A DNA stretch of 64,000 nucleotides from a virus. The notes beneath the pieces were generated by a model. That model was not told where the DNA came from. It made no database searches and worked only from the letters and a program-made list of their open reading frames with translations. Positions 16,115 through 32,758 of this stretch are shown piece by piece. Location: positions 31,013 through 95,012 of the IMG/VR virus record IMGVR_UViG_3300021425_000014, one strand, 5' to 3'. Every line of letters begins with the position of its first letter. Position 1 is the stretch's first letter. The position numbers and the translations under genes were made by a program.

Positions 16115-16177
16115 TGAGTAAGTTTGGCGATTATAAATTTCTTCTACCGTAGTCCTGAAATAGAAAGAGTATTAATT

Positions 16178-16801
16178 ATGCCCTTAGTTCCTATGGTAAT
16201 CGAGCGTTCTAGCAATGGCGAAAGGTCTATGGATCTCTGGAGTCGCCTAATGGATGAGCGTATTGTAATGGTCACTGAGCCAGTAGATGACGCTATGGCA
16301 AGCATTATTATCGGCCAACTTCTATTCTTAGACTACAAAGATCCTAGCAAGGACATTACTCTTTACGTGAATTCGCCTGGCGGTTCCGTGACCGCAGGAT
16401 TAGGAATCTTCGATACAATGAATCTTGTTACCTGCGATATTGCGACCGTATGCGTTGGACAAGCCTGTTCTATGGGCTGCTTTCTTTTGGCAGCAGGGAC
16501 TAAAGGTAAGCGCTACGCAACACCAAGCGCTACGATTATGGCCCATCAGCCTTTGGGTGGGGCTAGAGGTCAAGCAACGGATATTCTTATTCAGAACGCC
16601 GAAATGCAGCGATTGAAGAAATATCTGACTGAAACAATGGCTGATAATTGCGGCATGGAGCACTCTAAGATGTATGAACTCTGTGAGCGCGATTACTTCA
16701 TGAGTGCAGATCATGCCAAGGAACTTGGCTTTATTGATGAAATTATTGGCAAGAAACCAGAAAGTTCAATGGATCAATTCAAGGGCGCGGTGAATCACTG
16801 A
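16178..16801 (+). CDS. clpP: ATP-dependent Clp protease proteolytic subunit (host-like)
   Basis: MPLVPMVIE..GERS.D.WSRL, NSPGGSVTAG, ACSMG (Ser), HQP (His), ERD (Asp). Confidence 0.93.
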   Translation: MPLVPMVIERSSNGERSMDLWSRLMDERIVMVTEPVDDAMASIIIGQLLFLDYKDPSKDITLYVNSPGGSVTAGLGIFDTMNLVTCDIATVCVGQACSMGCFLLAAGTKGKRYATPSATIMAHQPLGGARGQATDILIQNAEMQRLKKYLTETMADNCGMEHSKMYELCERDYFMSADHAKELGFIDEIIGKKPESSMDQFKGAVNH

Positions 16802-18306: not shown

Positions 18307-18719
18307 ATATCATCAAAAGAAATGCACAAACTAGTCAGTCAAAAAATTTGGGAGGCGGATTAAGTTTCGCCTCCTTATATACATGTATATATAAAAACTT
18401 TTTGGCCCCATGGGGGGGATCTCCAAACTAAAAAAAGCAGCTAATATATGTTTTGAATTTTAATTCCTTAATTTTTTAACAGAAAATTTTTTCTCGCGCG
18501 AGCGAGCCCTCATTGTATTGCATCGTATTGAATTGTATTGTATTGCTTGGTATTGTATTAAGTTGTATTGTATTGTATTGCCGACACCCCAGCGCCCGAA
18601 CCCCAATACAATGTAATGCAATCAAACGCGGAACCCCAATACAATGCAATGTGATAAGCTAGATCACATTCCTTATACATGCGAGAAAAAAGTTTTTTTA
18701 GTTTTTTTCAAAAAAGGGC

Positions 18720-18748
18720 TTGCAATCGATCGCGCATTGCCCTATGAT
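18720..18748 (+). promoter_or_regulatory. Cassette promoter P1
   Basis: TTGCAA-17-TATGAT; same core as P2. Confidence 0.85.
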
Positions 18749-18787
18749 GTTTTTGTTCCCCACACAACAGAGGAGATTAAAACCATC

Positions 18788-19606
18788 ATGGCTTGCACAC
18801 TCATTAAGCCGGAAGCCCCCAAGTATCGCACTCCCAAGCGCGATGAATACAAGTCTATGGCGTTCTTTCATGCTCTTATGGATGACGCCAAGCGGGCATT
18901 AGAGCGGGCCCCGATGCCCGAGATCGGGAAAAATGGCAACAGCAAGATCGGCGCGCGTGGCGTCAAGGCATACACTCTGGTATATTCCGGCGTGGCGTGG
19001 CACGATTGCACGCCTACGATCGGCTGTAATTCCTGCTATGCGATGGGCTTTAGATACATGCATGCCATCGCACACCGCAAGGGTAAATCGTGGCTTTATT
19101 CCTACATGGCGCGGGAAGCGATCGAACCATTAGAATTTATCATCCGCCATGAGATCATGGAAGCGCTGATCAAGTCTAAGCGATTGGGCTTAACTCTGGC
19201 CGTCAGGATTCACGAAGCGGGCGATTTTATATCACCTGAACACGTCGCGATGTGGGATCGCATTGCAAAAGAATTTAAAACGGCTGTTTTTTGGTGCTAC
19301 ACTCGCTCAGATCTGGCAAGCGATGCCATGCGCGATGCCTTAGTATCTTTCGCGGAAAATGAAAATGTGCATTGTCGCGCATCATTTGATCCTGTTAATG
19401 ATGGGGAAGAAATCAAGCTTACCCGTAATGGTTTACCCGGCGCGATCATCGTTGGCACTAAGCATAAGGGCAAGCGCAAGGGCCCCGAACACGTTAAGGG
19501 GGCTGTTAATTGCCCCGAACAGCTTACAAATGGTGAGATCGGCTGTTCCGATTGTGGGCTATGCTGGAATAAATCCAAGCCTGTGATCCGATTCTGGAAG
19601 CACTAG
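18788..19606 (+). CDS. GP88-like Cys-rich phage protein (radical-SAM-like fold family)
   Basis: GNSKIG, C...C..CYA, RIHEAGDF, WCYTRS, CP...CSDCGLC; start at ATG 18788 after AGGAG (upstream part of the tracked ORF is promoter DNA). Confidence 0.75.
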   Translation: MACTLIKPEAPKYRTPKRDEYKSMAFFHALMDDAKRALERAPMPEIGKNGNSKIGARGVKAYTLVYSGVAWHDCTPTIGCNSCYAMGFRYMHAIAHRKGKSWLYSYMAREAIEPLEFIIRHEIMEALIKSKRLGLTLAVRIHEAGDFISPEHVAMWDRIAKEFKTAVFWCYTRSDLASDAMRDALVSFAENENVHCRASFDPVNDGEEIKLTRNGLPGAIIVGTKHKGKRKGPEHVKGAVNCPEQLTNGEIGCSDCGLCWNKSKPVIRFWKH

Positions 19607-19922
19607 CTTGTATTGTATTGCCCCCCGCAAGGGGGGCTTTTTTCTGCGTGCCCATATATTGCATTGTATTGTATTGCCGTTCGCTCTCGCCTGAGATTGT
19701 ATTGCATTGTATTGTATTGGCAGGCCCCCCGGCTTCGCCGGGCTCCGAGCCCCGATCGCGGCACAATACAATATCATACAGTATAAATAAAATCCCCAAT
19801 ACAATACAATTACATACATCGTTACACCAGCCGCTGGCCCCAATACAATGCAATCTAACATAGGGCCAGATCTGAGCCAGATCGAGCGAAAAAAGAAAAT
19901 CAAAAAAAGATCGTTTTGGGGC

Positions 19923-19951
19923 TTGCAATCGATCGCGCATTGCCCTATGAT
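19923..19951 (+). promoter_or_regulatory. Cassette promoter P2
   Basis: TTGCAA-17-TATGAT. Confidence 0.85.
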
Positions 19952-20011
19952 GGGTTTGTTAAGGCAACGGGGGGCACGGAAAACCCCCCCTGAATAAGGA
20001 GAGTGGCCGCC

Positions 20012-21001
20012 ATGGCACACGAAATGAAAAACAACGATCACATGGTTTCGGGTATGGGCATCAAGCCCTGGCACGGTCTGGGAACCGTCGTAGACGGGCT
20101 GTTGACGGCCCGCGAGACTCTGGAAGCCGCCAGGCTTGATTGGGAAGTTATCAAACACCCGATCACGCTGCAAGGTTCCGATCAAATCGTACCCGATTCG
20201 TTCGCAACCATCCGCACAGATGATCGCTCTGTGCTTGGCATCGTCGGCAATCAATACACGATTCTTCAGAATGTCGATGCTTTCAACTTTTTCGATAGCA
20301 TCGCAGAACGCGGCGATGCGATCTATGAAACAGCGGGATCGCTGTTTGGTGGGCGTAAAATCTACGTCACCGCAAAAATCCCAGGCTTGATCCGCGTTGG
20401 TGATGCGGGCAACGAAGATGTAAGCGAAAAATACGTATTACTCACAAACAGCCATGACGGCACTGGGGCTGTTACAGTCAAGCTGATCACAACCAGGGTG
20501 GTCTGCAACAACACGTTAACGGCAGCATTACGCGAAGGCGGGCGCGGTGTGTCGATCCGGCACTCCCAACTAATGCATGATAAATTGGCGCTTGCATCGA
20601 ACATGCTAGGGATCGCTAATCAGCGCTTCCAGCAAATGGAAGAAACATTTAACCAGTTTGCCAACGTGCAACTAAAAGAAATCGAGGTACGCGATTTCTT
20701 GCGGAAATGTTTTGAGCTTCCATCTGATGCAGATAAAGCAACCGATAAAGACAAACGCGCCATTGCCCAGGTAATGGAACTGCATGAGTCTGGCCGTGGC
20801 TCAGAGTTTACCCGTGGCACTCTCTGGGGGGCATTTAATGCCGTCACAGAGTGGACAAACCATTACCGCACATATAAAGAGCAGGCAAACGGTAACACGC
20901 GGGCAGATAACAAGCTTGGATCTATCTTTTACGGTCAATCTGCTACACTCACCGATCGAGCGTATGACCTTGCGCGGGATCTTGTGTTAGCTAAGCGCTA
21001 A
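20012..21001 (+). CDS. DUF932/TIGR03299-family phage/plasmid protein
   Basis: MAHE...PWHGLG, LGIVG..Y..LQN..AF.F.D, YETAGSL..GR, NSHDG, RVVCNNTL, TLWGAFNAVTE. Confidence 0.88.
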   Translation: MAHEMKNNDHMVSGMGIKPWHGLGTVVDGLLTARETLEAARLDWEVIKHPITLQGSDQIVPDSFATIRTDDRSVLGIVGNQYTILQNVDAFNFFDSIAERGDAIYETAGSLFGGRKIYVTAKIPGLIRVGDAGNEDVSEKYVLLTNSHDGTGAVTVKLITTRVVCNNTLTAALREGGRGVSIRHSQLMHDKLALASNMLGIANQRFQQMEETFNQFANVQLKEIEVRDFLRKCFELPSDADKATDKDKRAIAQVMELHESGRGSEFTRGTLWGAFNAVTEWTNHYRTYKEQANGNTRADNKLGSIFYGQSATLTDRAYDLARDLVLAKR

Positions 21002-21276
21002 CGCGGGGCAATGGGGGCCCCAAATCGGGGCCCCTTACCCGACACGTGGTATACTTACCATACCAGTTATACGATCGGCCCTTATGGGGCTTGTGTGAGG
21101 GCTTATGCACCTTTTATTTTTACCGCTTGTTTTAGTTTTTTGTTTCGCCGTTTTACTTATTCAATTTATAGGCATGGCGATCATTCACGGGATCTCTGGC
21201 CGTCGCAGATGGTATAGTTAATCTGTCGGAATCATCGGGGCCCCAAATCGGGGCCCCACACAGAAAGGATCATAAA

Positions 21277-21660
21277 ATGACAACTTCTCTAGACATGTTC
21301 AAGGTTCGCTGGGATAAGCAAGATACAGAATGGAACAGCAGCAACATAAACCCTATGGCTTGCCATGATTTCTTCGATAAATTCATTAATGATGTGGAGT
21401 TTCAAACTAGCATTAACTTGAATAACAACATTCAAATTTACAAAGATTATTACGTAAGGGGCAAATATAACTTTGTAAAAGTATTTCAATCGTTAATGCG
21501 GATCCTGAATACGTACCGCAAAAAAACGGGGGACACGACGATCACAACAATTGATGAAATTAAATTTATTGCCGATATGGTAGAAAATAACATATGGAAC
21601 AAACACCTAGTACCGTTAACCATTCAACGGGAATACATTAAGTCTATCTACTCCGAATAA
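21277..21660 (+). CDS. Cassette gene, hypothetical
   Basis: AAAGGA SD, upstream hairpin and TGGTATAGT extended -10, downstream hairpin. Confidence 0.7.
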   Translation: MTTSLDMFKVRWDKQDTEWNSSNINPMACHDFFDKFINDVEFQTSINLNNNIQIYKDYYVRGKYNFVKVFQSLMRILNTYRKKTGDTTITTIDEIKFIADMVENNIWNKHLVPLTIQREYIKSIYSE

Positions 21661-22699
21661 TCACAGAGCGCAGAGCAGAGAAACAAGCAAAGGGGCCCCC
21701 CAAAATCGGGGGCCCTTACTGCATGAATAATATATATATTATAGATAATACCATAAGCTTATAAGGTATAAAGAATAACACGAAGGTACAAACACTCAAG
21801 GAAAGAAAATCAAGCCCCTTCTAGGGCATTCTAGGCCCCTCTATTGAGGCCCTTACCGATCCAGTTTTCAAGCCCCCATGAAAAACCCTGTATAAACCTT
21901 TTTATTTGTCTGCTAGGGGCCCTTGAATCAATACAAAATACCCCCTTTGGGGCATCCCCAGCCTAAAAATAGCACTATAAGCCCCTTTCGGGCAGATTCT
22001 TTAAAAAATCCAGCGCCGCATAAGAGGCTGTACCATATTAAATTGTATTGTTAAGCTCTATGTTTAGTTCTTTTACTCCTCTATATATAGTATGATATTG
22101 TATTGATACTATATATATATTATAAGTTATTATATTGTATTGGGGTTATTAGGCCCCGTTTTGTGTTGTATTGTATTGTAGACTCAGTTCGACACCTTTA
22201 GTACTTTCGCACAGCCGAGTGGAATACAATTCAATACTCTACAATGCTTATTTTAGTTCAAAGATATATATATATTATATTGTATTGTATGGGCCCCCGT
22301 TTTCTGTGGGGTAGTTTAGACTAAAAGTTTAGGCCAACTTTTCGGGGCCCCTTACTTTGTAGTTATTAAACATGTATATATATAATAAATAAAAACTTCG
22401 AGCCCTATATATAGGATCCCCCACTTTCTTTTAACAGCTTTATATATATAATACAATACAATACATTAGGTGCCCCGCTTTTTCACCCAACCGCGAGCGC
22501 CCTGTATTGTATCGCATCACATTGTATTACATTGTATTGTATTGCCTTGTATTGTATTGTATGACATTGTATTGTATTGGTGATGGGTGGCGGTGTGTCC
22601 TCAATACAATATAATGCAATGCGAGAGCGAGGGGCCCCGGCAATACAATGCAATCTAATGCGAGCCTGATCTGGCCTGATCTGACACAAAAGATTTTTC

Positions 22700-22728
22700 T
22701 TGCAATCTTTCGCCAGATATGTTGTAAT
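22700..22728 (+). promoter_or_regulatory. Cassette promoter
   Basis: TTGCAA-17-TGTAAT preceded by GATCTG doublet. Confidence 0.7.
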
Positions 22729-22775
22729 TAGATTGTCGCACAAACGAGATGCCCAAACGGGCGGGAGACAAGACC

Positions 22776-23207
22776 TTGCATACAGAATTGACCAAAGACC
22801 AAATCGCTTTCTTGCGTAAGGCACGCCACATTTACTTCAGCGCACGTCGCAATGATGACGGTGTGTTTGTTGGCCACATCGAAGCAATCCAAGAAGATAA
22901 GGATAACCATTCCGTGGCGCGGATGGAAATCACAACACGCGCCATGATTAGTGGTGGGAACCGTGCTAACTGTTCGATCGCAATCGCTGGATTCTGTGAA
23001 GTCTGGCAAACTGTGTTAGCTTTCATCAAGTCTGGCGATTCGCTTGGCCTACGCTTTGAGGCCAACGGATTCCGCCCGTTGGATGAAAAGTACAATGACG
23101 TTAATCTTGATGTCTTGTATGTCAGTGTAGAACGGAATAATAAATTCTATAAATTCTTACTGGATGTTCACTTGACCAAGGAGGGTCATTACCGGATCAT
23201 CCAGTAA
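22776..23207 (+). CDS. Cassette gene, hypothetical
   Basis: TTG start after GGGAG; terminator 23213-23235. Confidence 0.7.
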   Translation: MHTELTKDQIAFLRKARHIYFSARRNDDGVFVGHIEAIQEDKDNHSVARMEITTRAMISGGNRANCSIAIAGFCEVWQTVLAFIKSGDSLGLRFEANGFRPLDEKYNDVNLDVLYVSVERNNKFYKFLLDVHLTKEGHYRIIQ

Positions 23208-23477
23208 ACCACGGGGCCCCGCAAGGGGCCCTTTTAACTAAAGTTAATTATATTGTATTGTATTGCATTAGTTCTTTTAATTGTATTGTATTGGCGTACT
23301 GGCCTCCGAGAAATCGGGGGCCTTTACGTTTCAATACAATTCAATACTATATATTAAAAACATTGTATTGTATTGTATGTGTAATTGGTTGGCCCCGAAA
23401 TCGCGGCCCTCAACCTACCAATACAATACTATAATATATATACCAAATATTAAATAAAAATAGTTTCAAAAAAGGGC

Positions 23478-23506
23478 TTGCAATGATTCTCAGGATATGC
23501 TTTAAT
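23478..23506 (+). promoter_or_regulatory. Cassette promoter
   Basis: TTGCAA-17-TTTAAT with TG extension. Confidence 0.7.
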
Positions 23507-23557
23507 GGTATTGTCAGGTTATGGCCCCACCTTTGAGCGGGCCCGGAGATCGGAACC

Positions 23558-23749
23558 TTGCCTAACACAAAACTTATCAGCAAGCACGGAACCAAAGATC
23601 GCGTTTTCTGCCCCCGGTGTTTGAGAGAGTTGCAGAGTGATATCAAAAGCGATATAAGTTTTTGGTTTCATTGGGCAGATAATTATCACGCGGCTGGACA
23701 CCAAACGGAAGAGCCATGCCAGCGGTATGCAGATACTTGCGGAGATTAA
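23558..23749 (+). CDS. Cassette gene, small hypothetical (CPRC)
   Basis: TTG after GGAG; terminator follows the stop directly. Confidence 0.65.
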   Translation: MPNTKLISKHGTKDRVFCPRCLRELQSDIKSDISFWFHWADNYHAAGHQTEEPCQRYADTCGD

Positions 23750-23988
23750 GCCCTGCCCCCTTCGGGGGGCTTTTTTATTATGCCTATATATATTGGATTG
23801 TATTGTATTGGCGATCGCCATCCGCCAAATCGCGAACACTCACTCTTTGAATACAATATAATATATTAATCTTATTGCATTGTATTGTATTAAGGCACCC
23901 CGATTCGCGGGCCCTTAAAACTTACCAATACAATACACTATAATAATAAAACCAAAGATCTGGCTCAGATCAACATGACCTTGATCAC

Positions 23989-24017
23989 TTGCGCCATGCC
24001 CCCCATCGTGCTACACT
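23989..24017 (+). promoter_or_regulatory. Cassette promoter
   Basis: TTGCGC-17-TACACT with TG extension. Confidence 0.7.
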
Positions 24018-24067
24018 AAGGTTGTTCGGTTAAGCGATGGCGCTGGACGCGCCGGGAGGTAAACGCA

Positions 24068-24259
24068 ATGGGTGATTTAAACTGGCCTTTCTGGCACACG
24101 CAAGAAGAGTGTGACGAGATGAACAAAACGCTTGTGGATGATATGAAAAACAACATGAGCAAGATTCTGTGGAACAACGATCATGATACAGTTCAAGAAA
24201 TTCTTTCGAGATGGGAAGAAAACACAGGCATCGATCTTCGCCTTGAGCGCGATTGGTAA
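24068..24259 (+). CDS. Cassette gene, small acidic hypothetical
   Basis: GGGAGGT SD after leader hairpin. Confidence 0.8.
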   Translation: MGDLNWPFWHTQEECDEMNKTLVDDMKNNMSKILWNNDHDTVQEILSRWEENTGIDLRLERDW

Positions 24260-24274
24260 AAAGGGAGGTAAGCA

Positions 24275-24559
24275 ATGCAGACCACGCAAGTTTATAACAA
24301 CGTCATCGAGGCTGTTGTGTGCAACAGCATGGCGTATGACTTTCAATTACCCATCGGCAAGTTCGATGGCGAAAGTTTACTCAAAAAGATCTGGTTCAAG
24401 ATTCAAAAGAAAGGGAATAGTAAAAGCCCTGACATCCAAATGCAGCGCGCCATGTGGCTAAGCCCTTGCAGGTTCGATGGAAGCGCTTTAAGGTCAATGG
24501 ATATGAAAGGGCAATGGTGGGACACAGGCATGGAGCTTGTAGCCAAGCGAGACATTTAA
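24275..24559 (+). CDS. Cassette gene (second cistron), hypothetical
   Basis: GGGAGGT SD; terminator at 24572. Confidence 0.75.
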   Translation: MQTTQVYNNVIEAVVCNSMAYDFQLPIGKFDGESLLKKIWFKIQKKGNSKSPDIQMQRAMWLSPCRFDGSALRSMDMKGQWWDTGMELVAKRDI

Positions 24560-24783
24560 TAGTATTGTATTGCCCCCCGAGAGGGGGGCTTTCTCGTATG
24601 CCCCTGTGTATTGTATTGTATGGGCGGATACCCCTGCTTAATCAAAATTCAAAAAAACGCGCCGCCGCATATTCGATACAATTCAATTCAATGCGATGAA
24701 TGTATGGTATTGTATTGTATAAAAACGCGGGCACTCACTCTTTGCCAATACAATACAAACAGATCTGACTCTGATCTAAACAC

Positions 24784-24812
24784 TTGCGTCATTAATATAT
24801 ATCTGCTAGAAT
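24784..24812 (+). promoter_or_regulatory. Cassette promoter
   Basis: TTGCGT-17-TAGAAT with TG extension. Confidence 0.75.
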
Positions 24813-24848
24813 TAAAGAGTAAAGGCAAGGGCTCAAGCGAGCCGGAAA

Positions 24849-25088
24849 GTGAAGGTTATGATCCCTTTTGCTGAGATTGAATTGTGGGATGACTACGGCC
24901 ACAAGAAGTGGATTGAATATGACAATATTGATGATGTCATATGGGGCCATAAATGGGATGACTCGGACGATCATGAGTGTGAGAGATCGGGTAACGTAGA
25001 AATCCACAAGCTGGGGCCCAAGGATCATTATTATTGTATTATCATGGTTAAGAAATACGGGATGCCCAAACTCGAACTCCAACTCTAA
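24849..25088 (+). CDS. Cassette gene, small acidic hypothetical
   Basis: Between promoter and terminator; start GTG 24849 or ATG 24858. Confidence 0.7.
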   Translation: MKVMIPFAEIELWDDYGHKKWIEYDNIDDVIWGHKWDDSDDHECERSGNVEIHKLGPKDHYYCIIMVKKYGMPKLELQL

Positions 25089-25325
25089 CTTAACAGCTTT
25101 ATATTGTATTGCCCCTCTGGCTCTGGCTGGCGGGGCACTTTTGCGCTCAGGCCCGCCTCGCTGTATTGCATTGTATTGTATGCCCCCGTCGTATTGCATT
25201 GTATTGTATTGGTGGCCATCGACCCACGGCAATACAATTCAATTCAATGTAAAGGTTGTATGGTATTGTATTGTATTGGTCGGATCCGGGGCCCGATCTG
25301 GCCTGAAAAATGTTTTCAAAAACTA

Positions 25326-25355
25326 TTGACTTGGCCATGGACGGCATGTTACTCT
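25326..25355 (+). promoter_or_regulatory. Cassette promoter
   Basis: TTGACT-18-TACTCT with TG extension. Confidence 0.7.
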
Positions 25356-25401
25356 TGAGGAGTCAACACAAGCGATGGCGCTGACGCGCCGGGAGGCTCA
25401 A

Positions 25402-25770
25402 ATGCTCAAGAACATGATCGCCACGGATGCCCTGGGTGGGTTGCAGGTCAAGGTGTACCGCAACCTTCACAAGAAGTGCCTCAGCGTGTGGCATGCGGGC
25501 TATGTCGTGGCCCATGTTGACTCCATCACGCTGGATGGCGTGCTTTTCAAGGTGAACGAAGCTGGACGCCAACGCGTGTTGCGTGAGAAGAAAAAGAACG
25601 TCCACGCTTTCGTGACGGGCACAGTCACAGGCGTTAACGCGCCCCCACGGGGGGCTGTTCCCGTGTCCTACAACCCTTATAAGGGGGCTTCTTTCACCCT
25701 GCCTGATGGCCAGGCCATTATGGCGGCCGGAACGGTCACGGTGACGACCAGGGGGGCCTTCGTAGACTGA
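25402..25770 (+). CDS. Cassette gene, conserved phage hypothetical (VYRNLH...GRQRVLREKKKNVHAFV family)
   Basis: GGGAGG SD before ATG 25402; recognisable widespread phage motif of unknown function. Confidence 0.8.
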   Translation: MLKNMIATDALGGLQVKVYRNLHKKCLSVWHAGYVVAHVDSITLDGVLFKVNEAGRQRVLREKKKNVHAFVTGTVTGVNAPPRGAVPVSYNPYKGASFTLPDGQAIMAAGTVTVTTRGAFVD

Positions 25771-25928
25771 GGGCCCCGGCTCTCTTTCCCCATAGGGATC
25801 AATACAATGCAATGCAGTCCAATACAATGCAATTCAATGCAACGGTTATATTGTATTGTATTGTATGGCCCCCATCCGGGGGGGCTGATCTGGGGCTGAT
25901 CTGGGCTGAAAAATCTTTTTTGAAATCG

Positions 25929-25957
25929 TTGACATCTCGCTTGAAACTTGCTACTAT
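25929..25957 (+). promoter_or_regulatory. Cassette promoter
   Basis: TTGACA-17-TACTAT with TG extension. Confidence 0.85.
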
Positions 25958-25998
25958 TAAAGAGTAGTCGTTATGGCGCTGAGCGCCGGGAGGTCAAA

Positions 25999-26232
25999 GT
26001 GAAGGGCATCGACATCATTCGGGAATCGGACAACGGCGGAGAAATCATCGGATTTCGCATCAGCGCCAAGCACGGCGGATTCGGGTTTGACGTACCGCTT
26101 GTAGACTTAGTCAACGCTGAGGTGTTCACGGAAGAGAAGCGCGAGGCGCTGCTCAAGCGATACCAGGCCTACTTGGCCGATATCGTCAAAACCTGGGAGC
26201 AGCCGGGCACGGCTAATCGCTGGGATGTTTAG
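25999..26232 (+). CDS. Cassette gene, small hypothetical (DLVN family A)
   Basis: GTG after GGGAGGT. Confidence 0.75.
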   Translation: MKGIDIIRESDNGGEIIGFRISAKHGGFGFDVPLVDLVNAEVFTEEKREALLKRYQAYLADIVKTWEQPGTANRWDV

Positions 26233-26389
26233 CCCAGGGCCCCCCGAAAGGGGGGCTTTTTTCGTGTGGCTTATCAATACAATACAATTCAATACAACGC
26301 GGGGGGAATATATTGCATTGTATTGTATGGGCGGGATCGCCGTGCGCCATTCGGCCTCATCGGGCCAGCAATGCGGTGCGCAACGCAGC

Positions 26390-26495
26390 ATCGCATTTAA
26401 GGGCCCTGTGAGGGCCATGAAGGGGCTTATAGGTATCCGGGAGGGTGATTGTACCCTGAACGCCATCAGGGGCCTTTACGGGCCTTGTGGTGGCT
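26390..26495. repeat. About 100-bp dyad element with AGGGTGATTGTAC core (copy 1; others at 27993, 29743, 30537, 37100)
   Basis: Exact 13-bp core in five places, CCTTTA 31-32 bp downstream of core start in all five. Confidence 0.85.
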
Positions 26496-26518
26496 TGATC
26501 TGGAATAAAAAGTTTTTC

Positions 26519-26547
26519 TTGACATCCAATGATGGGGTTGATATGAT
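26519..26547 (+). promoter_or_regulatory. Cassette promoter
   Basis: TTGACA-17-TATGAT with TG extension. Confidence 0.9.
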
Positions 26548-26594
26548 GAAAGAGTCAGGCAAACGAGATGGCGCTGACGCGCCGGGAGGTCGAA

Positions 26595-26756
26595 ATGATG
26601 GTAAGCTTTCAGGAAGAAGAAAAGGGATTCTTGGTAGCGGTGACTGAAGACGATTTCGTCTTCATTCCCGTTCAGAACGGGAACCGCGTAGCCGCCTTCG
26701 AAGAGGCGATCGAGCAGCTTAACGAATGGTTCTATGCATCACTTAAATACAAGTGA
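26595..26756 (+). CDS. Cassette gene, small acidic hypothetical
   Basis: GGGAGGT SD; terminator 26763. Confidence 0.75.
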   Translation: MMVSFQEEEKGFLVAVTEDDFVFIPVQNGNRVAAFEEAIEQLNEWFYASLKYK

Positions 26757-26956
26757 TGCGAGGCCCCCGAAAGGGGGCTTTTTTCGTGCCAATCATCAAT
26801 ACAATACAATTCTATACAATCACTGCATCGCATTGTATTGTATGGGGAAGAATCGGGGGGCCATACCTACTTCCCTTTGAATCACCAATACAATACAGTT
26901 TAATATATGACCTGATCTGGCCTCAAAATATTTTTAAAATAGTTTCTGAAAAGGGG

Positions 26957-26985
26957 TTTACATTCCCAGGTGAAACGGGTATGAT
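26957..26985 (+). promoter_or_regulatory. Cassette promoter
   Basis: TTTACA-17-TATGAT. Confidence 0.8.
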
Positions 26986-27035
26986 ATTAATGTAAGGGTT
27001 AAGCGACACCCCTGAGTCGCGGAGAACAGACCACC

Positions 27036-27272
27036 ATGGCTATCTTCAATGTTGTAATGGTTAAGGATCCGATGATGGCCCCCGTGCTCGTTGAGCAGCA
27101 CAAAGTCGAGAGCCTGAAAGAGGCTCGTAAGATCCTCAGCCAGTGGGCTGAAGATGGGGACAAAATAGTAGCCCTCAAGAAGGCGCCGCTTCCCTCAGGG
27201 CGCCACGTGACGCCACTGGTTATACAGACGATGGAAGAGGATTCCGATATCTTCGGACAATACATAGATTAA
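27036..27272 (+). CDS. Cassette gene, small hypothetical
   Basis: GGAG SD after hairpin; terminator 27278. Confidence 0.75.
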   Translation: MAIFNVVMVKDPMMAPVLVEQHKVESLKEARKILSQWAEDGDKIVALKKAPLPSGRHVTPLVIQTMEEDSDIFGQYID

Positions 27273-27506
27273 GCGAGGGGCCCCGCGAGGGGCCCTTTTT
27301 TTTATGCCCCTGTGTATATTGCATTGTATTGCCAGGGCGATCGCCCATCGGGACTTATCAATACAATTCAATGCAACCAATGTATTGCATTGTATTGGAC
27401 GGGGGCCCCGGCGAGCTTGCGCCAAATCGCGCGCCCTTACTCTTTGCAATACAATACAATCTAATTCATACCTGATCTGACCTTGATCTGACACAAGTTG
27501 ATTTAT

Positions 27507-27535
27507 TTGACATCCTTCCCGATAGTTGTTATTAT
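27507..27535 (+). promoter_or_regulatory. Cassette promoter
   Basis: TTGACA-17-TATTAT with TG extension. Confidence 0.9.
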
Positions 27536-27599
27536 AAAAGAGTCAAGGCAAGCGGGCCCGACGCCCGCCAGATGAACCCCAGGGGTTCGGGAGGTAAAC

Positions 27600-27821
27600 A
27601 TGACCATCACCATTGCCGTTGTTATCGCTGTGCTTACATTTGCGCTGGGCATGTCGCTCGGCGTGAGCCTTCAGCAATCATACGGTAATCGTACCGAAAG
27701 AATTTTATATGAGGCGTACCGCCAGGCGCGGGATGAGGCCCTTCACCTTGAAAGGAAAATCGCCACGGGCGAAAGTTTTAGGAGAAACGTCATCCGCTCA
27801 ATAAAGAAAATCTCAGACTAA
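27600..27821 (+). CDS. Cassette gene, small membrane-anchored protein
   Basis: N-terminal TM helix; GGGAGGT SD. Confidence 0.8.
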   Translation: MTITIAVVIAVLTFALGMSLGVSLQQSYGNRTERILYEAYRQARDEALHLERKIATGESFRRNVIRSIKKISD

Positions 27822-28209
27822 CACAGGGCCCCCGAAAGGGGGCTCTTTTTTTATGCCTGTTAATATATTGCATTGCATTGTATTGTTAGCCCCCCTTTTC
27901 TTCGTGCGTTCGAAACATCCGATAAGCCCCACAGCGTAGCACCCTTTTAAAGCGTGCTGTGAGCCCGTTAAACGCGTTTCAGGGGGGTGGGTAGGGTGAT
28001 TGTACCTTAGAACAATTTAAACGCCTTTAAAGCCCGTATGTTTAATCAATGCGATCGCCCATAGAAGATCAATACAATTCAATTCAATGCAGCCGTGGTA
28101 TCGCATTGTATTGTATGGACACAGGGCAGGGGCAAAAGCGGGGCCCGTCACTTTTTGCAATACAATATAATTATATATAAAAGGGTTGATCTGGGTTGAT
28201 CTGGTTTAG

Positions 28210-28238
28210 TTGACATCATAAGCCTGGTTTGATATGAT
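28210..28238 (+). promoter_or_regulatory. Cassette promoter
   Basis: TTGACA-17-TATGAT with TG extension. Confidence 0.9.
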
Positions 28239-28278
28239 TAAAGAGTAAAGGTTATGGCCTGATGGCCGGGAGGTTCTA

Positions 28279-28533
28279 ATGCGCGAGTACGTGGGCAATG
28301 TCGAGGATCTGTGGGAAAACCCTTTCGATGGCTATTGCCGTGCGCTTGACCGTTATGACCGCTTTGCGGTCTATGAACGGGACACGGACGGGTATGGATT
28401 CCCGATCTATCATTGCTGGTCAAGCAAGGAGCAGGAAACCATATGGTTCACAAGAGAGGACGCCGCCATGCGCTGGTGTCAAAACATGATGGTTGCCCTA
28501 CGACTTGAGGGGCATTATATCTGGATGGTTTAA
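28279..28533 (+). CDS. Cassette gene, small hypothetical
   Basis: GGGAGGT SD; terminator 28537. Confidence 0.8.
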   Translation: MREYVGNVEDLWENPFDGYCRALDRYDRFAVYERDTDGYGFPIYHCWSSKEQETIWFTREDAAMRWCQNMMVALRLEGHYIWMV

Positions 28534-28671
28534 CAGGGGGCCCCGCAAGGGGCCTCTTTTTTTATTGCCATAAGTCCATACAATACAATTCAATAACTTG
28601 ATTAGATTGCATTGCATTGTATTGCCCCGATACCGGGCTGATCTGGTCTGATTTGACAAGAAAAGTTTTTC

Positions 28672-28700
28672 TTGACATCCCGCTTGCGATTTGCTATTAT
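28672..28700 (+). promoter_or_regulatory. Cassette promoter
   Basis: TTGACA-17-TATTAT with TG extension. Confidence 0.9.
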
Positions 28701-28748
28701 TAAATTAGTCAAGCAAACGAGATGGCGCTGAGCGCCGGGAGGTTGAAA

Positions 28749-29072
28749 ATGGCAAAGCAACTTTGGTACGACATCAACAAGTTTCACGAAGGAAAGAATG
28801 TAGCCGATTGCCTTATCGGCACTGCAAGCCGCGAGGATCTGCACCATTATTTCTTGGTGCTGAATCGCTACAATGACACCAAAACGGGATACCTCCCTGG
28901 GGCATATCTTGAAAACCCAGAAAAAGATTATGTACTTGTGTCGGGAACGGAAACTACTGAAGAAATCGAAAGTTTCATGAAAAAAATTGTCCAGTGGTCA
29001 CTGGAGGATAAGGATTTTTCGGAAGAATTCAACGAAAGAACAAGACAGCTTGAAAAGGAATTCCAAGCTTAA
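28749..29072 (+). CDS. Cassette gene, hypothetical
   Basis: GGGAGGT SD before ATG 28749. Confidence 0.8.
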   Translation: MAKQLWYDINKFHEGKNVADCLIGTASREDLHHYFLVLNRYNDTKTGYLPGAYLENPEKDYVLVSGTETTEEIESFMKKIVQWSLEDKDFSEEFNERTRQLEKEFQA

Positions 29073-29256
29073 AGCCAAGCCCCCGCAAGGGGGCTTTTTT
29101 CTTGGCTTACCTTCCATACAATACAATGCAATTTAATGATTGTATGGGATTGTATTGTATTGATTAGTGGCAGGGCGCTAAAGGGCGATCGCCCATCGCG
29201 GCACAGCAATACAATGCAATGAGATACATCACCTGATCTGGCTTGATCTTAAAATG

Positions 29257-29285
29257 TTGACATCAGGTGTGCCAGATGTTATTAT
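29257..29285 (+). promoter_or_regulatory. Cassette promoter
   Basis: TTGACA-17-TATTAT with TG extension. Confidence 0.9.
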
Positions 29286-29344
29286 TAAATAGTCAAGGCG
29301 ACGGGGCGCTGCCCCAAGATGGCCCCAGTGGCCGGGAGGTTCTA

Positions 29345-29551
29345 ATGTTGGTTGACGCGATCAAGCTCAAGGGCAAAGGTTCTGACGCGGCTGATCCCGC
29401 TTATGGGATCGCTTTCACCGATAAGGATGGGGTCATCCTCGACATCACCGTCGAGGATCTGGTGAACGCTGCGGCGTTGCACAACCCATACCTTGACAAG
29501 GTGTCGTACCAAAAACATATCGAGCGTTGCATCGAAAGGATTTTCGAATAA
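29345..29551 (+). CDS. Cassette gene, small hypothetical (DLVN family B)
   Basis: GGGAGGT SD before ATG 29345. Confidence 0.8.
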   Translation: MLVDAIKLKGKGSDAADPAYGIAFTDKDGVILDITVEDLVNAAALHNPYLDKVSYQKHIERCIERIFE

Positions 29552-29830
29552 AGCCAAGCCCCCGCAAGGGGGCTTTTTTCTTGGCACATGTTCAATACAA
29601 TACAATTCAATGCGTTTAAGTTATTACATTGCATTGTATTGGCGATAAACCGTGCCCCCGGCGATCGCCCGTGGCGTCGTACACCACGACATCGCGTTTA
29701 AGGGGCCTGTGAGGGCCGTAAAGGGGCCTCTCGGTGTCTGGCAGGGTGATTGTACCCTAGCAGGGTTCAAGGGCCTTTACGGGGCTCCTGTGGCCTGATC
29801 TGATGGTTGATCTGGAGTGAAAGATTTTTG

Positions 29831-29859
29831 TTGACATCCTGTGACCGGCTTGCTATGAT
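29831..29859 (+). promoter_or_regulatory. Cassette promoter
   Basis: TTGACA-17-TATGAT with TG extension. Confidence 0.9.
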
Positions 29860-29923
29860 GAAATAGTCAAGGCGACGGGGCCCGATGCCCCGGTTATGGC
29901 CCCCAGGGGGCCGGGAGGTAAAC

Positions 29924-30178
29924 ATGACCATGATCGTTAACAAAGAGTACACCGTAAAGCTGGCTATAAACGGTAGCCAAGATCCGGTGGATCCAGTGGG
30001 AACCTTGAGGTTCCACGGTTTCACCGTTATCGGTGAAAACGGCGAAGAATTCTTCGTCGACTTTCAGGACTTGGCCAACGGTCGCCAGGTCGATGAAAAG
30101 TTCGACGTGACGATCTTGTGGCGGCTCAGTGAGTTCTACAAGTCACAGTTTCTCAAGGTTATCGGCGAGAAACTGTAA
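29924..30178 (+). CDS. Cassette gene, small hypothetical (DLAN family C)
   Basis: GGGAGGT SD before ATG 29924; terminator 30186. Confidence 0.8.
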   Translation: MTMIVNKEYTVKLAINGSQDPVDPVGTLRFHGFTVIGENGEEFFVDFQDLANGRQVDEKFDVTILWRLSEFYKSQFLKVIGEKL

Positions 30179-30824
30179 CCCAAGGGCCCCCCGCAAGGGG
30201 GGCTTTTTTTATTGCCCCCTATTATATGGCATTGTATTGTATTGCCCCCGGCATATAGCCCCTCCCCATCAATGCCCCTGTTAATCAGAAAAATAAATGT
30301 TTCACGCGCCGTATATTATAAAAATAATCGTTCGGTGGCCCCGAATGGCGGCCAATACAATTCAACACAATTCAATTCAATTCTAAAACATTTTATTGCA
30401 TTGTATTGAAAAAAGTTTCTGGGGGTGCGCAAAAAGCGGGAAGATTAATTCCCCACATTTTTCACTCAACCCTTAAAACTTAACACCCTTTTCTTTGCGT
30501 ACAGAATGGCGTTAAACACGTTTCAGATACCACGGCAGGGTGATTGTACCTTGAACGATTTTCAGGCACCTTTACGGGGCTTGCGTAGGCTGTTTTAAAT
30601 TTAACTCACATCAGGCTTGTTCAACTTGACGTTGAATTGACACAGCCTGAAAAATCCCATACAATACAATTCAACACATGGGGCCATGATCATGAGTTTT
30701 CCCCATGTATAGGATCCCCAACTTTCGACCAATAGCTTTAAAAACCCTTTCCCGCTTTCGATCGCCAGCCCCGGCGCACAGGGCGAAAAAAGTCGATTTT
30801 TGCTGTATTGTATTGTATTGTATT

Positions 30825-31310
30825 GTTAACCTAACCTTACCCTCATCTTAACCTGTTCTTAACCTTCGATGTCAACTAAGAGATCTTTAAGAGATCGTTA
30901 AATTTAGGTTAAATTTTGGTGTAAAATATTTTACCATATTTCGTCGAAAATGTCAATTAAAAGATCTTTAAAAGATCTTAAAATTTAGGTTAAATTTTGC
31001 TACCACGAAAATCCAGATCTGTCAACTAAATTTAGGTTAAAGATCTTTAAATTATGGTTAAATTTTACGATCACAGATCTCGTCGAAAGTCAATTAAATT
31101 TGAGTTAAAGATCTTTAAGTTTAGGTTAAGTTTTACGATCAGATTTTTCGTCGAAAGTCAATTAAAAATAAGTTAAAGATCTTAAAGGTTTGGTTAAATT
31201 TTACAGGCACATTTTTCACCGAAAGTCAATTAAATTCAGGTTAAAGATCTTTAAGATTTGATTAAACTTTTTTCGTCGAAAAAAATCAGATGAATCGGAT
31301 TTTGTCAATA
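30825..31310. repeat. About 68-bp tandem repeat array with phased TTAA boxes and the TTAAAGATCTTTAA palindrome
   Basis: GTCAA unit starts at 30871, 30952, 31021, 31089, 31157, 31225, 31304; CTTAACCT-type 11-bp repeats at 30825-30865. Confidence 0.9.
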
Positions 31311-32024
31311 CTTTTTTACAATTTGTAATATTCCTGATCAGTAATATTTGTTGTCAGATCCGCAACGTGACAACAAAAAAAAATCATGGAAAATCTAATA
31401 TGTCAATGGTTCAGATCAAGCTCAGATCATGTGAGTCTCATGCACTCAACATGTTGCCACGGCGGAAAAATCATGCGAATCGGATTTTGTCAAGCTTTAC
31501 ATTGCTTCACATTATCGTATGACATAAAAACGATCCCCGAAACCGGCTCCCAGTGCGGGCCCGTTTACAGGATGCCCGTAAAGGCCCTTGATCTACCCTT
31601 GCCCTTATGTCCGGACGTTGGACGCCTCAAGGGGCCCGGACGGGCATCCAGGGGCCCTAGGATGGCCTGTGAGGGGCCCGCCATCGGGCACGATTTGCCG
31701 ATCACGTCGAACATACAATCGAACAGTCATGCGCGCGCCATGCGTGTCGCGCGGGTACGCTGTGCGCTTGACGCCGTGATCTGACGTCAAACCCTGATGT
31801 GGCGCGGGTTTCCGGGTTTCCAGATCTAGCACGGTCAAACTGGATTGAATTGTATTGAAAGACGGGAAACGTAGACGCCGTGCCGGTTTCCGGGTTTTCA
31901 TGCTTGGATAGGCTCAAAATCGAGTCGATTTTGGGCTGTACATCAGGGGCCCGATGTGAGACTATATTCATGGCCAAGGGGCCACGGGGCAAAGCGGGGC
32001 CCGATACCCGCGGGGAGATACCAC

Positions 32025-32546
32025 ATGTCCGATATCACCACATTGCAAGCCGCCCTCGCACGTATCGCTGAGCTTGAGGCCGCTCAATCGGCACAAGCAG
32101 CCCCCTCGATTGCGGTAGAAGTCACAATCGAGGATCTCGATGTGGAGGGGGTGCAAACGGATGTACGTGCTGCTAACTTTGAACCCGCCGTTCGCGGCTC
32201 GCGGCTCGCGAAAAATCCAAGCGTGACGGGCAAGGGTATGAAGTCTTGTCATCACGCCGTTGACCTTGAACATGCCGTAAAAACGTTAAATAAGCTGGTC
32301 GCAGAATTCGGGCCCGTGTTCAAGCGGCCTCAAGCCCGCCGCTGGTTTTTCAATGCAGCCCGTACGGGTTTCGGGGAATATCAGCGCTACACGAACGAGG
32401 GTAGCGTAAACGGCCACTTCAGTGGCCTTAAGGCGCGCGTTGACGACGAAGCACCGGGTCTGCTCACCACGAGGAGCAAACCCGAAACTTGGACGGTTGA
32501 CCTATTCAAACTTGCACAGCTTAACAAACTCTTTAACATCTCTTAA
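32025..32546 (+). CDS. Hypothetical protein (last gene of the early-type island)
   Basis: GGGGAG SD before ATG 32025; hairpin 32557-32581. Confidence 0.75.
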   Translation: MSDITTLQAALARIAELEAAQSAQAAPSIAVEVTIEDLDVEGVQTDVRAANFEPAVRGSRLAKNPSVTGKGMKSCHHAVDLEHAVKTLNKLVAEFGPVFKRPQARRWFFNAARTGFGEYQRYTNEGSVNGHFSGLKARVDDEAPGLLTTRSKPETWTVDLFKLAQLNKLFNIS

Positions 32547-32758
32547 CCTTGGGTGGGGGGCCCGTCCAGCGGGCCCCCTTTAAGTTCTGGTTAAGGTTTT
32601 CCCCTGTGGAAGACCCCCTCCTTAACAAAAATTTAACCTTCCCTTAAGAAAGGGCGTTATAACAATCTAGTGCGTGACCTTGTTACCATAGACAGGAATG
32701 GCATAAAACGCCACTACAACCTCACCCGGCGCTATGGCTTTACCATAGACAGGATTCA

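Follow-up and report, generated by a model that had tools for sequence, protein, structure and literature searches.

A probable PeSL-like island of self-contained expression units in an uncultured water phage

PeSL cassettes of T4-like phages were described in 2010 and 2014 (PMC2839356, PMC4122927). The same reports provide the PeSL definition and the crossover sites, as well as the mechanism, in which homologous recombination in the regulatory spacers shuffles the cargo (PMC2839356, PMC4122927). We identified a locus of comparable design in a 95-kb phage contig. The best explanation is that its source is an uncultured water phage, a myovirus, and that the locus is a hyperplastic accessory-gene island. 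Positions below refer to the window, i.e., the whole stretch of 64,000 nucleotides that was analysed, and genes are named by their start positions.

Layout of the island

The cassette island (18480–30830, plus strand) is located mid-contig in the 95-kb genome, a position that gives no support to the proposal of a first-injected region, and is 53% non-coding. It contains 17 same-strand ORFs (18788–30178) in approximately 15 promoter-bearing units. These begin with a σ70-type promoter, continue with a short leader in which a GC hairpin adjoins the GGGAGG ribosome site, and close with a terminator formed by a GC hairpin. Throughout the spacers, the terminator is followed in one order by pentamer arrays, (ATTGN)n/(NCAAT)n, a GC linker, GATCTG boxes, an A/T tract and finally the promoter. 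The linker slot can hold a 100-bp element instead, with the order unchanged in every spacer. The features are as follows (+, plus strand;., no strand given).

18480–30830 (+): whole cassette island, sole place with pentamer arrays in the 95-kb genome
18512–18650 (.): leading spacer; (ATTGN) arrays of 7 and 4–6 units (two scans), GC linker, (NCAAT) arrays of 4 and 3 units
18655–18787 (+): regulatory module 1; A/T tract, TTGCAA-17-TATGAT promoter 18720–18748, SD GAGGAG
18788–19606 (+): cargo, 272 aa, Pfam GP88 (PF17338); terminator 19620–19643
19607–19854 (.): spacer; arrays >3 >4 >5, linker, <2 <3 <3, around terminator
19860–20011 (+): regulatory module 2; GATC boxes 19869, 19880; promoter 19923–19951; leader hairpin; SD AAGGAG
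20012–21001 (+): cargo, 329 aa, DUF932 / TIGR03299 'phage/plasmid-like protein'; then GGGGCCCC hairpin 21014–21035 without T run
21277–21660 (+): cargo, 127 aa, GC 0.35; own promoter absent
21661–22654 (.): gene-free run of ~1 kb; GC hairpins, TATATA tracts, pentamer arrays
22664–22775 (+): regulatory module; GATCTG boxes 22668, 22678; TTGCAA-17-TGnTGTAAT promoter 22700–22728; hairpin; GGGAG
22776–23207 (+): cargo, 143 aa, TTG start, ORFan; terminator 23213–23236
23247–23432 (.): spacer; arrays and GC hairpins
23460–23557 (+): regulatory module; A/T tract, TTGCAA-17-TGnTTTAAT promoter 23478–23506, leader
23558–23749 (+): cargo, 63 aa; terminator 23755–23776
23792–23940 (.): spacer; arrays, linker with GGCGATCGCC
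23957–24067 (+): regulatory module; GATC boxes 23957, 23968; TTGCGC-17-TGnTACACT promoter 23989–24017; hairpin GGCGC..GCGCC; GGGAGGT
24068–24559 (+): bicistronic cargo, 63 aa and 94 aa, second ORF 24275–24559; terminator 24572–24595
24610–24760 (.): spacer; arrays, including hairpin pair 24674–24720
24762–24848 (+): regulatory module; GATC boxes 24762, 24773; TTGCGT-17-TGnTAGAAT promoter 24784–24812; hairpin
24849–25088 (+): cargo, 79 aa, GTG start, acidic; terminator ~25113–25145
25103–25279 (.): spacer; arrays, including hairpin pair 25229–25281
25283–25401 (+): regulatory module; GATC boxes 25283, 25295; TTGACT promoter 25326–25355; hairpin; GGGAGG
25402–25770 (+): cargo, 122 aa, Pfam Phage_L5_gp82, GC3 0.74; terminator 25753–25790
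25799–25871 (.): pentamer hairpin (<9 >4), −23.5 kcal/mol
25881–25998 (+): regulatory module; GATCTG boxes 25887, 25898; promoter 25929–25957; hairpin; GGGAGGT
25999–26232 (+): cargo, 77 aa; terminator 26236–26265
26274–26485 (.): spacer; pentamer hairpin 26274–26328, then 100-bp element copy (core AGGGTGATTGTAC at 26442)
26497–26594 (+): regulatory module; GATCTG box 26497; promoter 26519–26547; hairpin; GGGAGGT
26595–26756 (+): cargo, 53 aa, acidic; terminator 26760–26787
26796–26900 (.): spacer; hairpin 26796–26843, linker, <4
26914–27035 (+): regulatory module; GATCTG box 26914; TTTACA-17-TATGAT promoter 26957–26985; hairpin
27036–27272 (+): cargo, 78 aa; terminator 27275–27304
27318–27460 (.): spacer; arrays >3, hairpin 27359–27400, linker, <3
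27474–27599 (+): regulatory module; GATCTG boxes 27474, 27485; promoter 27507–27535; two leader hairpins; GGGAGGT
27600–27821 (+): cargo, 73 aa, hydrophobic N-terminus; terminator 27825–27852
27867–28171 (.): spacer; array, 100-bp element (core 27993), hairpin 28070–28116, linker, <3
28188–28278 (+): regulatory module; GATCTG boxes 28188, 28198; promoter 28210–28238; hairpin; GGGAGGT
28279–28533 (+): cargo, 84 aa, acidic; terminator 28535–28564
28578–28627 (.): pentamer hairpin; holds left end of X6 deletion joint (28608|30229)
28640–28748 (+): regulatory module; GATCTG and GATTTG boxes; promoter 28672–28700; hairpin; GGGAGGT
28749–29072 (+): cargo, 107 aa, acidic; terminator 29077–29102
29116–29220 (.): spacer; pentamer hairpin 29116–29165, linker with GGCGATCGCC, <3
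29235–29344 (+): regulatory module; GATC boxes 29235, 29245; promoter 29257–29285; leader hairpins; GGGAGGT
29345–29551 (+): cargo, 68 aa; terminator 29556–29581
29592–29786 (.): spacer; pentamer hairpin 29592–29644, then 100-bp element (core 29743)
29797–29923 (+): regulatory module; GATCTG boxes 29797, 29809; promoter 29831–29859; two leader hairpins; GGGAGGT
29924–30178 (+): cargo, 84 aa; terminator 30182–30213
30221–30826 (.): trailing spacer without cargo; arrays 30221–30245 (right end of X6 joint), hairpin 30353–30411, 100-bp element (core 30537), array 30807–30826

A sequence-only reading had proposed an array of approximately 16 stereotyped single-gene cassettes whose homologous spacers reuse the same sub-modules in the same order. 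The array and the common order were confirmed (17 genes, ~15 units, 18.5–30.8 kb); the count of single-gene cassettes was not, as g24068 shares a bicistronic unit with g24275 and 21.7–22.65 kb holds gene-free hairpins and arrays, which look like spacers without cargo.

Regulatory modules and spacer repeats

Fifteen promoter/leader modules could be aligned, with the consensus (C)TGATCTGG x1-2, AAAAnTTTTT, TTGACATC, 17 bp, TGnTATnAT, aAAgAGTCAAGGc, hairpin, GGGAGGT, ATG. Seven perfect TTGACA-17-TGnTAT(G/T)AT promoters were present within 26.5–29.9 kb, whereas matches of equal quality were merely scattered in the rest of the 95-kb genome. In the leaders (34–61 nt), the GC hairpin ends 0–1 nt 5' of the exposed GGGAGG, and at least seven different stem sequences occupy this same position, which represents compensatory variation. 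A strong plus-strand GC hairpin with a T run follows 13–14 stop codons, and 55 terminator-like sites were detected versus 16 ± 4.9 in shuffles. The proposal that almost all genes have their own promoter and terminator holds for most of them; exceptions are g21277, for which no promoter of its own was found and which is probably co-transcribed with g20012, and the hairpins 3' of both these genes, which lack a T run. Some modules are closely alike: the 34-bp promoter core is identical in modules 1 and 2 (18717–18750 in module 1), 29070–29162 matches 29549–29641 at 81%, and the terminator of g28749 (29077–29102) is identical to the next one.

In the proposed mechanism, host σ70 RNA polymerase would start at the near-consensus extended −10 promoter with its upstream A/T tract, the leader hairpin at the exposed GGGAGG would make the mRNA more stable and promote strong translation, and the GC hairpin with T run would end transcription and thereby insulate the units from one another. 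By analogy with T4, SPO1 and T5, the units may be expressed right after infection without phage factors, an early timing predicted from the promoter type.

Approximately 54 pentamer arrays were detected, all inside 18512–30826, and the rest of the genome contained only two 2-unit chance matches. Their hairpin pattern occurred 12 times versus 0 in 100 shuffles, and in 12 spacers an imperfect AT-rich pentamer palindrome (−9 to −23.5 kcal/mol) is located 3' of the terminator. The core AGGGTGATTGTAC of the 100-bp element was found at 26442, 27993, 29743 and 30537. The GATC boxes are located 11–12, 22, 31–34, 42–43 and 54 bp from the −35 element and are in helical phase with it (R = 0.93 at a 10.5-bp period); 9 of the 10 genomic copies of CTGATCTG lie inside the island, all on the plus strand. 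Kept in this phase, the TGATCTG boxes are most likely binding sites of one protein that would co-regulate all these promoters.

It is possible, though unlikely, that arrays and boxes are purely regulatory, i.e., operator arrays of a host or phage DNA-binding protein for island shut-off or unit insulation, with recombination joints there being incidental. Candidates would be a repressor that binds 'stoperator'-like sites in many intergenic regions, a nucleoid protein, or a protein whose binding to paired GATC sites is methylation-sensitive. Such a function is consistent with the strict helical phase across units of different spacings, with the order of arrays, boxes and promoter fixed in every spacer, and with array lengths that show no gaps over 1.3 kb compared to the 96%-identical relative X6. 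However, no array- or box-binding protein was identified, GATC methylation is not established because the phage methyltransferase (PF01555 class) has no assigned target, and regulation is compatible with a recombination role and may hold alongside our main explanation.

Cargo and its exchange among relatives

Family searches gave no match for 13 of the 17 cargo proteins; the four matched families, which include the mutually unrelated GP88, DUF932 and L5 gp82, have no known function. The anti-defence or host-takeover role proposed for the cargo gained no support from these matches. No mutual similarity was found for 14 of the 17, in agreement with the proposal of autonomous promoter-to-terminator cassettes (15 alignable modules) with unrelated cargo, and the other three, which have a weak common motif (23–24% identity), may be distant paralogues. 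As had been suspected, cargo genes are GC-richer than core genes (GC 0.48 vs 0.41, GC3 0.58 vs 0.34, p = 3e-8), and, with few exceptions, GC-rich terminators, GGGCCC and CCGGGAGG ribosome sites fall within 18.5–32.6 kb. Both observations would fit an island of foreign origin, either a mobile element or a block lately acquired from a GC-richer phage, in place of a native early region. This origin is improbable: neither an integrase nor element ends were found, relatives (among the matches listed) have the island in the same location and between the same flanks, and the GC shift is equally explicable by early-gene adaptation to host translation or by many separate acquisitions.

Among the matches listed, these relatives are represented by short k-mer-assembled contigs of four other metagenomes; they are 96–99% identical where shared and differ in that whole cassettes are deleted, cargo is replaced and, in one case, the order is changed. 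The X6 contig (4365 bp, flank 99% identical) lacks the whole g27036 cassette (joint 26784>27317) as well as g28749, g29345 and g29924, with the exact joint 28608|30229 inside homologous GCATTGYATTGTATTGCCCC. In X2 (5348 bp), 218 other letters stand in place of the g23558 stretch and 377 other letters in place of 24026–24276 (g24068), and a skip 26199>27829, ending at a terminator, removes three cassettes. In an X4 contig, the joint 23264>23869 (array to array) is followed by 23903>19994, so that the DUF932 gene comes after g22776. Several listed joints were discarded as pentamer cross-matches. Among the joints listed, 15 of the 16 joint ends are in arrays, terminators or leaders, and three or four joints fall in arrays, although breakpoints between genes are to some degree expected under any mechanism. 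One further joint, 18546>31104, was considered as an empty island site and rejected, since it is a 25-nt pentamer cross-match on a contig carrying island parts. Such high identity together with differences in whole cassettes, replacements and order suggests that exchange is recent. The predicted exchange via homologous spacers was thereby supported, and identical order and cargo in relatives, named beforehand as refuting it, was checked and is not what they show.

No integrase or resolvase (tyrosine or serine recombinase) was found in the 95-kb contig, a 94%-complete genome, as an integrase-free system would have it, and no endonuclease VII was found in this genome; a RecA-family gene is present. 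Units share homologous regulatory spacers and carry unrelated cargo, so the spacers amount to portable homology. With the phage RecA-family protein, that of the host, or both, general homologous recombination at terminators, pentamer arrays and leaders would delete, insert, replace or move cargo, with the arrays supplying, at minimum, ~20 bp of homology. We consider it probable that the locus is a PeSL-like hyperplastic early-gene island of ~15 self-contained expression units shuffled in this way.

A dedicated site-specific (integron-like) system, with the pentamer palindromes as attC-like sites for a specialised, so far unrecognised recombinase, would account for the palindromes 3' of the terminators, for the joints in arrays and for the restriction of arrays to the island. 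We regard it as very unlikely, given that the recombinases and endonuclease VII are missing, the other joints fall in terminators and leaders outside arrays, the cassettes have their own promoters, and the ~20 bp of plain homology around the X6 joint suffice for recombination of the RecA or annealing type. An array produced only by duplicating a single ancestral unit in tandem, with later divergence and no ongoing exchange, is scarcely credible, as the common grammar, the near-identical neighbouring pieces and the weak cargo motif that it would explain by descent stand against mostly dissimilar cargo from unrelated families and are contradicted by closely related contigs that differ in cassettes, replacements and order. 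Ancient tandem duplication could, in part, have produced the spacer similarity.

Comparison with known systems

The label 'integron-like' was not upheld: unlike integron cassettes, those of the island carry their own promoters, and the contig has no integrase. The claim of a candidate new system was not upheld either, since the core design of the island is that of the PeSLs. The island is larger and more elaborate, and its spacers are 3–6 times longer than those of PeSLs, which suggests extra functions outside the homologous-recombination model. What goes beyond PeSLs, and what is left of the claim of novelty, is only the long composite spacers with their pentamer arrays, phased GATCTG boxes and 100-bp element.

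Organization of the cassette units

We found 17 plus-strand ORFs (53–329 aa) between 18.5 and 30.8 kb, forming a row of small-gene cassettes, here called the island; the gene carried by each unit is its cargo and is designated by its start position (e.g., g21277). Upstream regions of 15 units aligned as a single module (alignment A1), in which one or two (C)TGATCTGG boxes were followed by an AAAAnTTTTT tract, TTGACATC, 17 bp and TGnTATnAT, and, after the -10 element, by a conserved start region aAAgAGTCAAGGc, a GC hairpin, GGGAGGT and the start codon. One subclass of these modules, an older-looking type, had TTGCAA instead of TTGACATC at -35. Perfect TTGACA-17-TGnTAT(G/T)AT sequences occurred at seven sites within 26.5–29.9 kb and were scattered across the rest of the genome. 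The leaders were 34–61 nt long, and their hairpin ended 0–1 nt ahead of the ribosome site. Its stem was built from at least seven different sequences with pairing kept at the same position, which speaks for conservation of the RNA structure; neither Rfam nor tRNA scans gave a match above threshold within the island.

Terminator-like sites were also abundant (55 observed vs 16 ± 4.9 in shuffles). A strong plus-strand GC hairpin with a T run was located 3' of 13–14 stop codons, ahead of the next promoter and 250–550 bp away from it. GC-rich terminators and CCGGGAGG ribosome sites were almost confined to the island. The sequence-only reading had given almost every gene its own promoter and its own terminator. 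The first part holds for the 15 aligned modules but not for g21277, which has no promoter of its own, and g24068 and g24275 form a bicistronic unit; the second holds after the 13–14 stop codons.

The island is unusual in that more than half of it (53%) is non-coding, and in having genome-unique pentamer arrays and GATC boxes phased with promoters. Repeat analysis recovered each sub-module of the spacers (300–600 bp) as a family, and the feature map placed these uniformly in all spacers: first the terminator, then arrays, then a linker or the 100-bp element, then GATC boxes and last the promoter. The proposal that spacers reuse the same sub-modules in the same order was thus borne out. Approximately 54 (ATTGN)n/(NCAAT)n arrays were detected, within the whole genome only at 18512–30826. 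The inverted-array pattern had 12 matches vs 0 in 100 shuffles, and inverted arrays folded at -9 to -23.5 kcal/mol. A literature search turned up no counterpart to these pentanucleotide arrays in the early regions of phages.

The GATC boxes were located 11–12, 22, 31–34, 42–43 or 54 bp upstream of -35, distances that follow the helical repeat (R = 0.93 at 10.5 bp, n = 24) and are not fully independent because the units are homologous. Their phase was kept in units with different tract lengths, and 9 of 10 genomic copies of CTGATCTG were inside the island, all on the plus strand. We take the GATCTG boxes as candidate sites for a common regulator, which is supported by the helical phasing. A phage Dam acting on them is unsupported, since the phage methyltransferase is of the PF01555 class and has only the SAM-binding end in common with its nearest solved relatives.

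Several other elements were observed in the spacers. A gene-free region of approximately 1 kb (21661–22654) contained short GC hairpins, TATATA tracts and pentamer arrays; it resembles a group of cargo-less spacers and was conserved at approximately 96% in X2, one of the sequencing runs with relatives. The cyanobacterial HIP1 octamer is part of GGCGATCGCC, which had four copies, all in island GC linkers (23810, 27336, 29184 and 29660). It hints weakly that the host may be a cyanobacterium, and is taken as a lead because the four copies are homologous repeats. An element of approximately 100 bp, with an invariant core AGGGTGATTGTAC and CCTTTA downstream, was present in five copies, for which RNAalifold found no covariation support:

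Copies of the 100-bp element
26389–26485, island spacer
27940–28040, island spacer
29690–29786, island spacer
30490–30590, island spacer
37050–37150, outside the island

Cargo and genomic setting

No family was found for 13 of the 17 cargo proteins in Pfam, PHROGs and NCBIfam. Three others matched GP88, DUF932/TIGR03299 and L5 gp82, none with a known function, and g22776 had a marginal PHROG match (E = 0.0012). Sequence searches of the PDB with the cargo gave no match, and neither these searches nor the DUF932 literature provided a function for any cargo protein. The cargo genes had a GC3 of 0.58, compared with 0.34 for 36 core genes (p = 3e-8). Ten of the 17 encode small acidic proteins, and the whole set offers candidates to screen for host takeover or counter-defence. 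The proteins were mutually unrelated, apart from a possible distant trio with 23–24% identity and a weak motif, G-F..G..D-V..DLVNA, whose members may be old paralogues:

Cargo genes of the possible trio
25999–26232, plus strand, g25999
29345–29551, plus strand, g29345
29924–30178, plus strand, g29924

The IMG/VR viral contig, of which the window covers bases 31013–95012, is linear, 95,012 bp long and rated 94% complete. It has no end repeats, and the island lies mid-contig (49.5–61.8 kb of 95 kb), with the replication module on one side and the structural module on the other. Gene content includes ribonucleotide reductase, DnaB-type helicase, DnaE-like polymerase, tail sheath and tail fibres. 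No close cultured relative was found, as there was no megablast match in INPHARED phages; the DnaE-like polymerase was at most 31% identical to that of any cultured phage (the best matches, at 29–31%, were Bacillus phages) and the tail sheath at most 27%. The phage encodes a RecA-family recombinase (G000:C1:20053-20766, minus strand, before the window; PF00154, E = 3e-58). Neither a tyrosine or serine recombinase nor an endonuclease VII was found in the 95-kb contig; PF00589 (tyrosine recombinase) was absent from it and matched all control genomes. Auxiliary genes flank the island:

Auxiliary genes flanking the island
16124–16801, ClpP protease
32759–33589, minus strand, RmlD-like dTDP-sugar enzyme
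35241–35876, minus strand, RmlC-like dTDP-sugar enzyme
33688–34806, minus strand, PF01555 DNA methyltransferase

The island is bounded by a tandem array at 30870–31310 (68-bp units, 3.7 copies, 82% identity), in which AGATCT palindromes and TTAA are frequent and TTGAC(A) boxes occur on the minus strand. This array, which could be iterons or an origin, differs in relatives from runs X4 and X6 (a joint that goes back 184). A strong promoter-like site is present on the minus strand at 30956–30928. GC-rich composition continues beyond the island at 31386–32650 (GC3 of 0.58 in the ORF at 31956–32546), and all nine GGGCCC sites outside the island are within 31.5–32.6 kb, suggesting that the accessory region may reach approximately 32.6 kb. 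Elsewhere, a perfect TTGACA-16-TGnTATAAT promoter was found at genome position ~24.6 kb (window -6400 to -6200), directly before a putative tRNA gene, and two more near-consensus promoters at window -8516 and -7517, where coding density was lowered.

Cassette differences between relatives

No relatives were found in IMG/VR with flanking proteins, DnaE, DUF932 and three DNA patterns as queries, which returned chance matches or unrelated microsatellites (e.g., L100), and the hairpin pattern gave only chance matches or satellites (e.g., L223) in JGI metagenome contigs and GTDB genomes. Relatives identified by flank proteins (P0001–P0004) were 65–93% identical. A sequencing-run look-up identified the source sample (X1) as a seawater metagenome, and 23 further runs, from freshwater, pond, lake, estuary and seawater, carried 5–16% of the words of the island. 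No RNA run among the sequencing runs listed contained the sequence.

We compared contigs from four of the 23 runs over 15–33 kb of the window; the evidence is contig-level and the joints are those among the matches listed (joint a>b means that the relative's contig skips from a to b). A 4365-bp contig from X6 matched the right flank at 99% identity and the shared parts of the island at 96–98%. It lacked g27036 (joint 26784>27317) and also g28749, g29345 and g29924, the latter with an exact joint, 28608|30229, within a homologous array GCATTGYATTGTATTGCCCC. Because the homology at this joint falls short of the assembler word length, the contig is unlikely to be chimeric here. In a 5348-bp contig from X2, g23558 was replaced by 218 other letters (23568>23751) and g24068 by 377 (24026>24276), and a further skip (26199>27829), in which three cassettes were gone, ended at a terminator. 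A contig from X4 had an array-to-array joint (23264>23869) followed by 23903>19994 into the DUF932 leader, a reordering. Joints such as 18546>31104, 18579>30220 and 19719>25256 had sides of just 24–25 nt and were treated as pentamer cross-matches, not as island-less relatives. Among the joints listed, 15 of the 16 joint ends fell in arrays, terminators or leaders. The expectation that relatives would differ in their cassettes was therefore confirmed at the contig level, by loss, replacement and reordering with joints in spacer modules.

The simplest model for the island is general recombination of the type described for the promoter-early stem-loop (PeSL) cassettes of T4-type phages. Insulated promoter-terminator units would tolerate insertion anywhere, conserved regulatory DNA between them would provide short homologies, and general recombination could then excise, insert or swap cargo. 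We take the pentamer arrays as additional recombination homology, which is supported by the joints in relatives. An unlikely alternative is that the palindromes and the phased TGATCTG boxes form a binding array of one unrecognised phage or host protein, which would assemble on every spacer. The complex would silence the whole island once the early period is over, for instance by responding to replication or to the methylation of paired GATC sites, and would also make the spacers favoured places for crossover. If true, this would be an integrase-free, protein-guided system of cassette exchange and regulation, and we know of no phage for which one has been described.

Comparison with known systems

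The island has its closest parallel in PeSLs, which are known from the T4-type phages RB49/phi1, PST/T4 and nt-1/KVP40 and consist of a terminator stem-loop, A/T-rich tract, sigma70-type promoter, SD and start codon, located between ORFans in a hyperplastic region (PMC2839356, PMC4122927). Related phages with PeSLs show insertions, deletions and replacements, and their crossovers fall in the stem-loop, the A/T region or the -10-to-ATG stretch; neighbouring elements recombine to give mini-circles, and no dedicated recombinase is known (PMC2839356, PMC4122927). Similarly, the 15 island modules have an A/T-rich tract, sigma70-like -35/-10, SD and start codon, the copies lie within 12 kb next to cargo mostly without a family (13 of 17), and close relatives show, at the contig level, indels and replacements with crossovers inside the elements. 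A terminator stem-loop also precedes the promoter of the next gene, but at 250–550 bp, whereas it is immediately adjacent in PeSLs, and the PeSL composite is much shorter than island spacers of 300–600 bp. Beyond the PeSL design, the island has inverted arrays of pentamers, GATCTG boxes in helical phase, GC linkers, the 100-bp element and, within the message, a hairpin in the leader. In addition, the phage is not T4-type (Tevenvirinae), having a DnaE-type polymerase and at most 27–31% identity to cultured phages. The island matches PeSLs in functional features and departs from them in taxonomy.

Host-takeover or pre-early modules include the SPO1 terminal redundancy, the T5 first-step-transfer region and the long terminal repeats of Kayvirus. 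The island resembles them in its approximately 12 kb of small uncharacterised genes with many strong host-type promoters, strong ribosome sites and terminators. The SPO1 and T5 modules are transcribed first, by unmodified host RNA polymerase, which the promoter type of the island would fit, and from this promoter type we infer immediate-early expression by host polymerase. However, a terminal repeat and first injection are features of SPO1 and T5, whereas in the present contig the island lies between replication and structural modules. Morons of lambdoid phages, as reportedly described by Juhala et al. in 2000, are single accessory genes with their own promoter and terminator and atypical composition. 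Island genes share these features and differ in composition from the rest of the genome, but morons are scattered single insertions expressed from the prophage, whereas here approximately 15 units stand in tandem with homologous spacers and no integrase. Finally, the island had been called integron-like but integrase-free. It shares with integrons a row of same-strand single-gene cassettes, an imperfect palindrome after each and content variable between relatives, and the integrase is indeed absent; unlike integrons, it has no IntI or common Pc promoter, its cassettes each come with a promoter and terminator, and its joints also fall outside the palindromes. The palindromes after 12 island terminators are pentamer repeats without the attC consensus or an Rfam match.

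PeSL-type shuffling is documented in T4-like phages, and the island carries this logic into an unrelated, uncultured lineage of aquatic myoviruses. Contigs from independent metagenomes with recent cassette loss, swap and movement support promoter-terminator cassettes as a general route by which lytic phages trade small genes. The arrays and phased GATCTG boxes fall outside the PeSL description and offer concrete sites to study co-regulation of early promoters and the selection of short tandem repeats as recombination seams.
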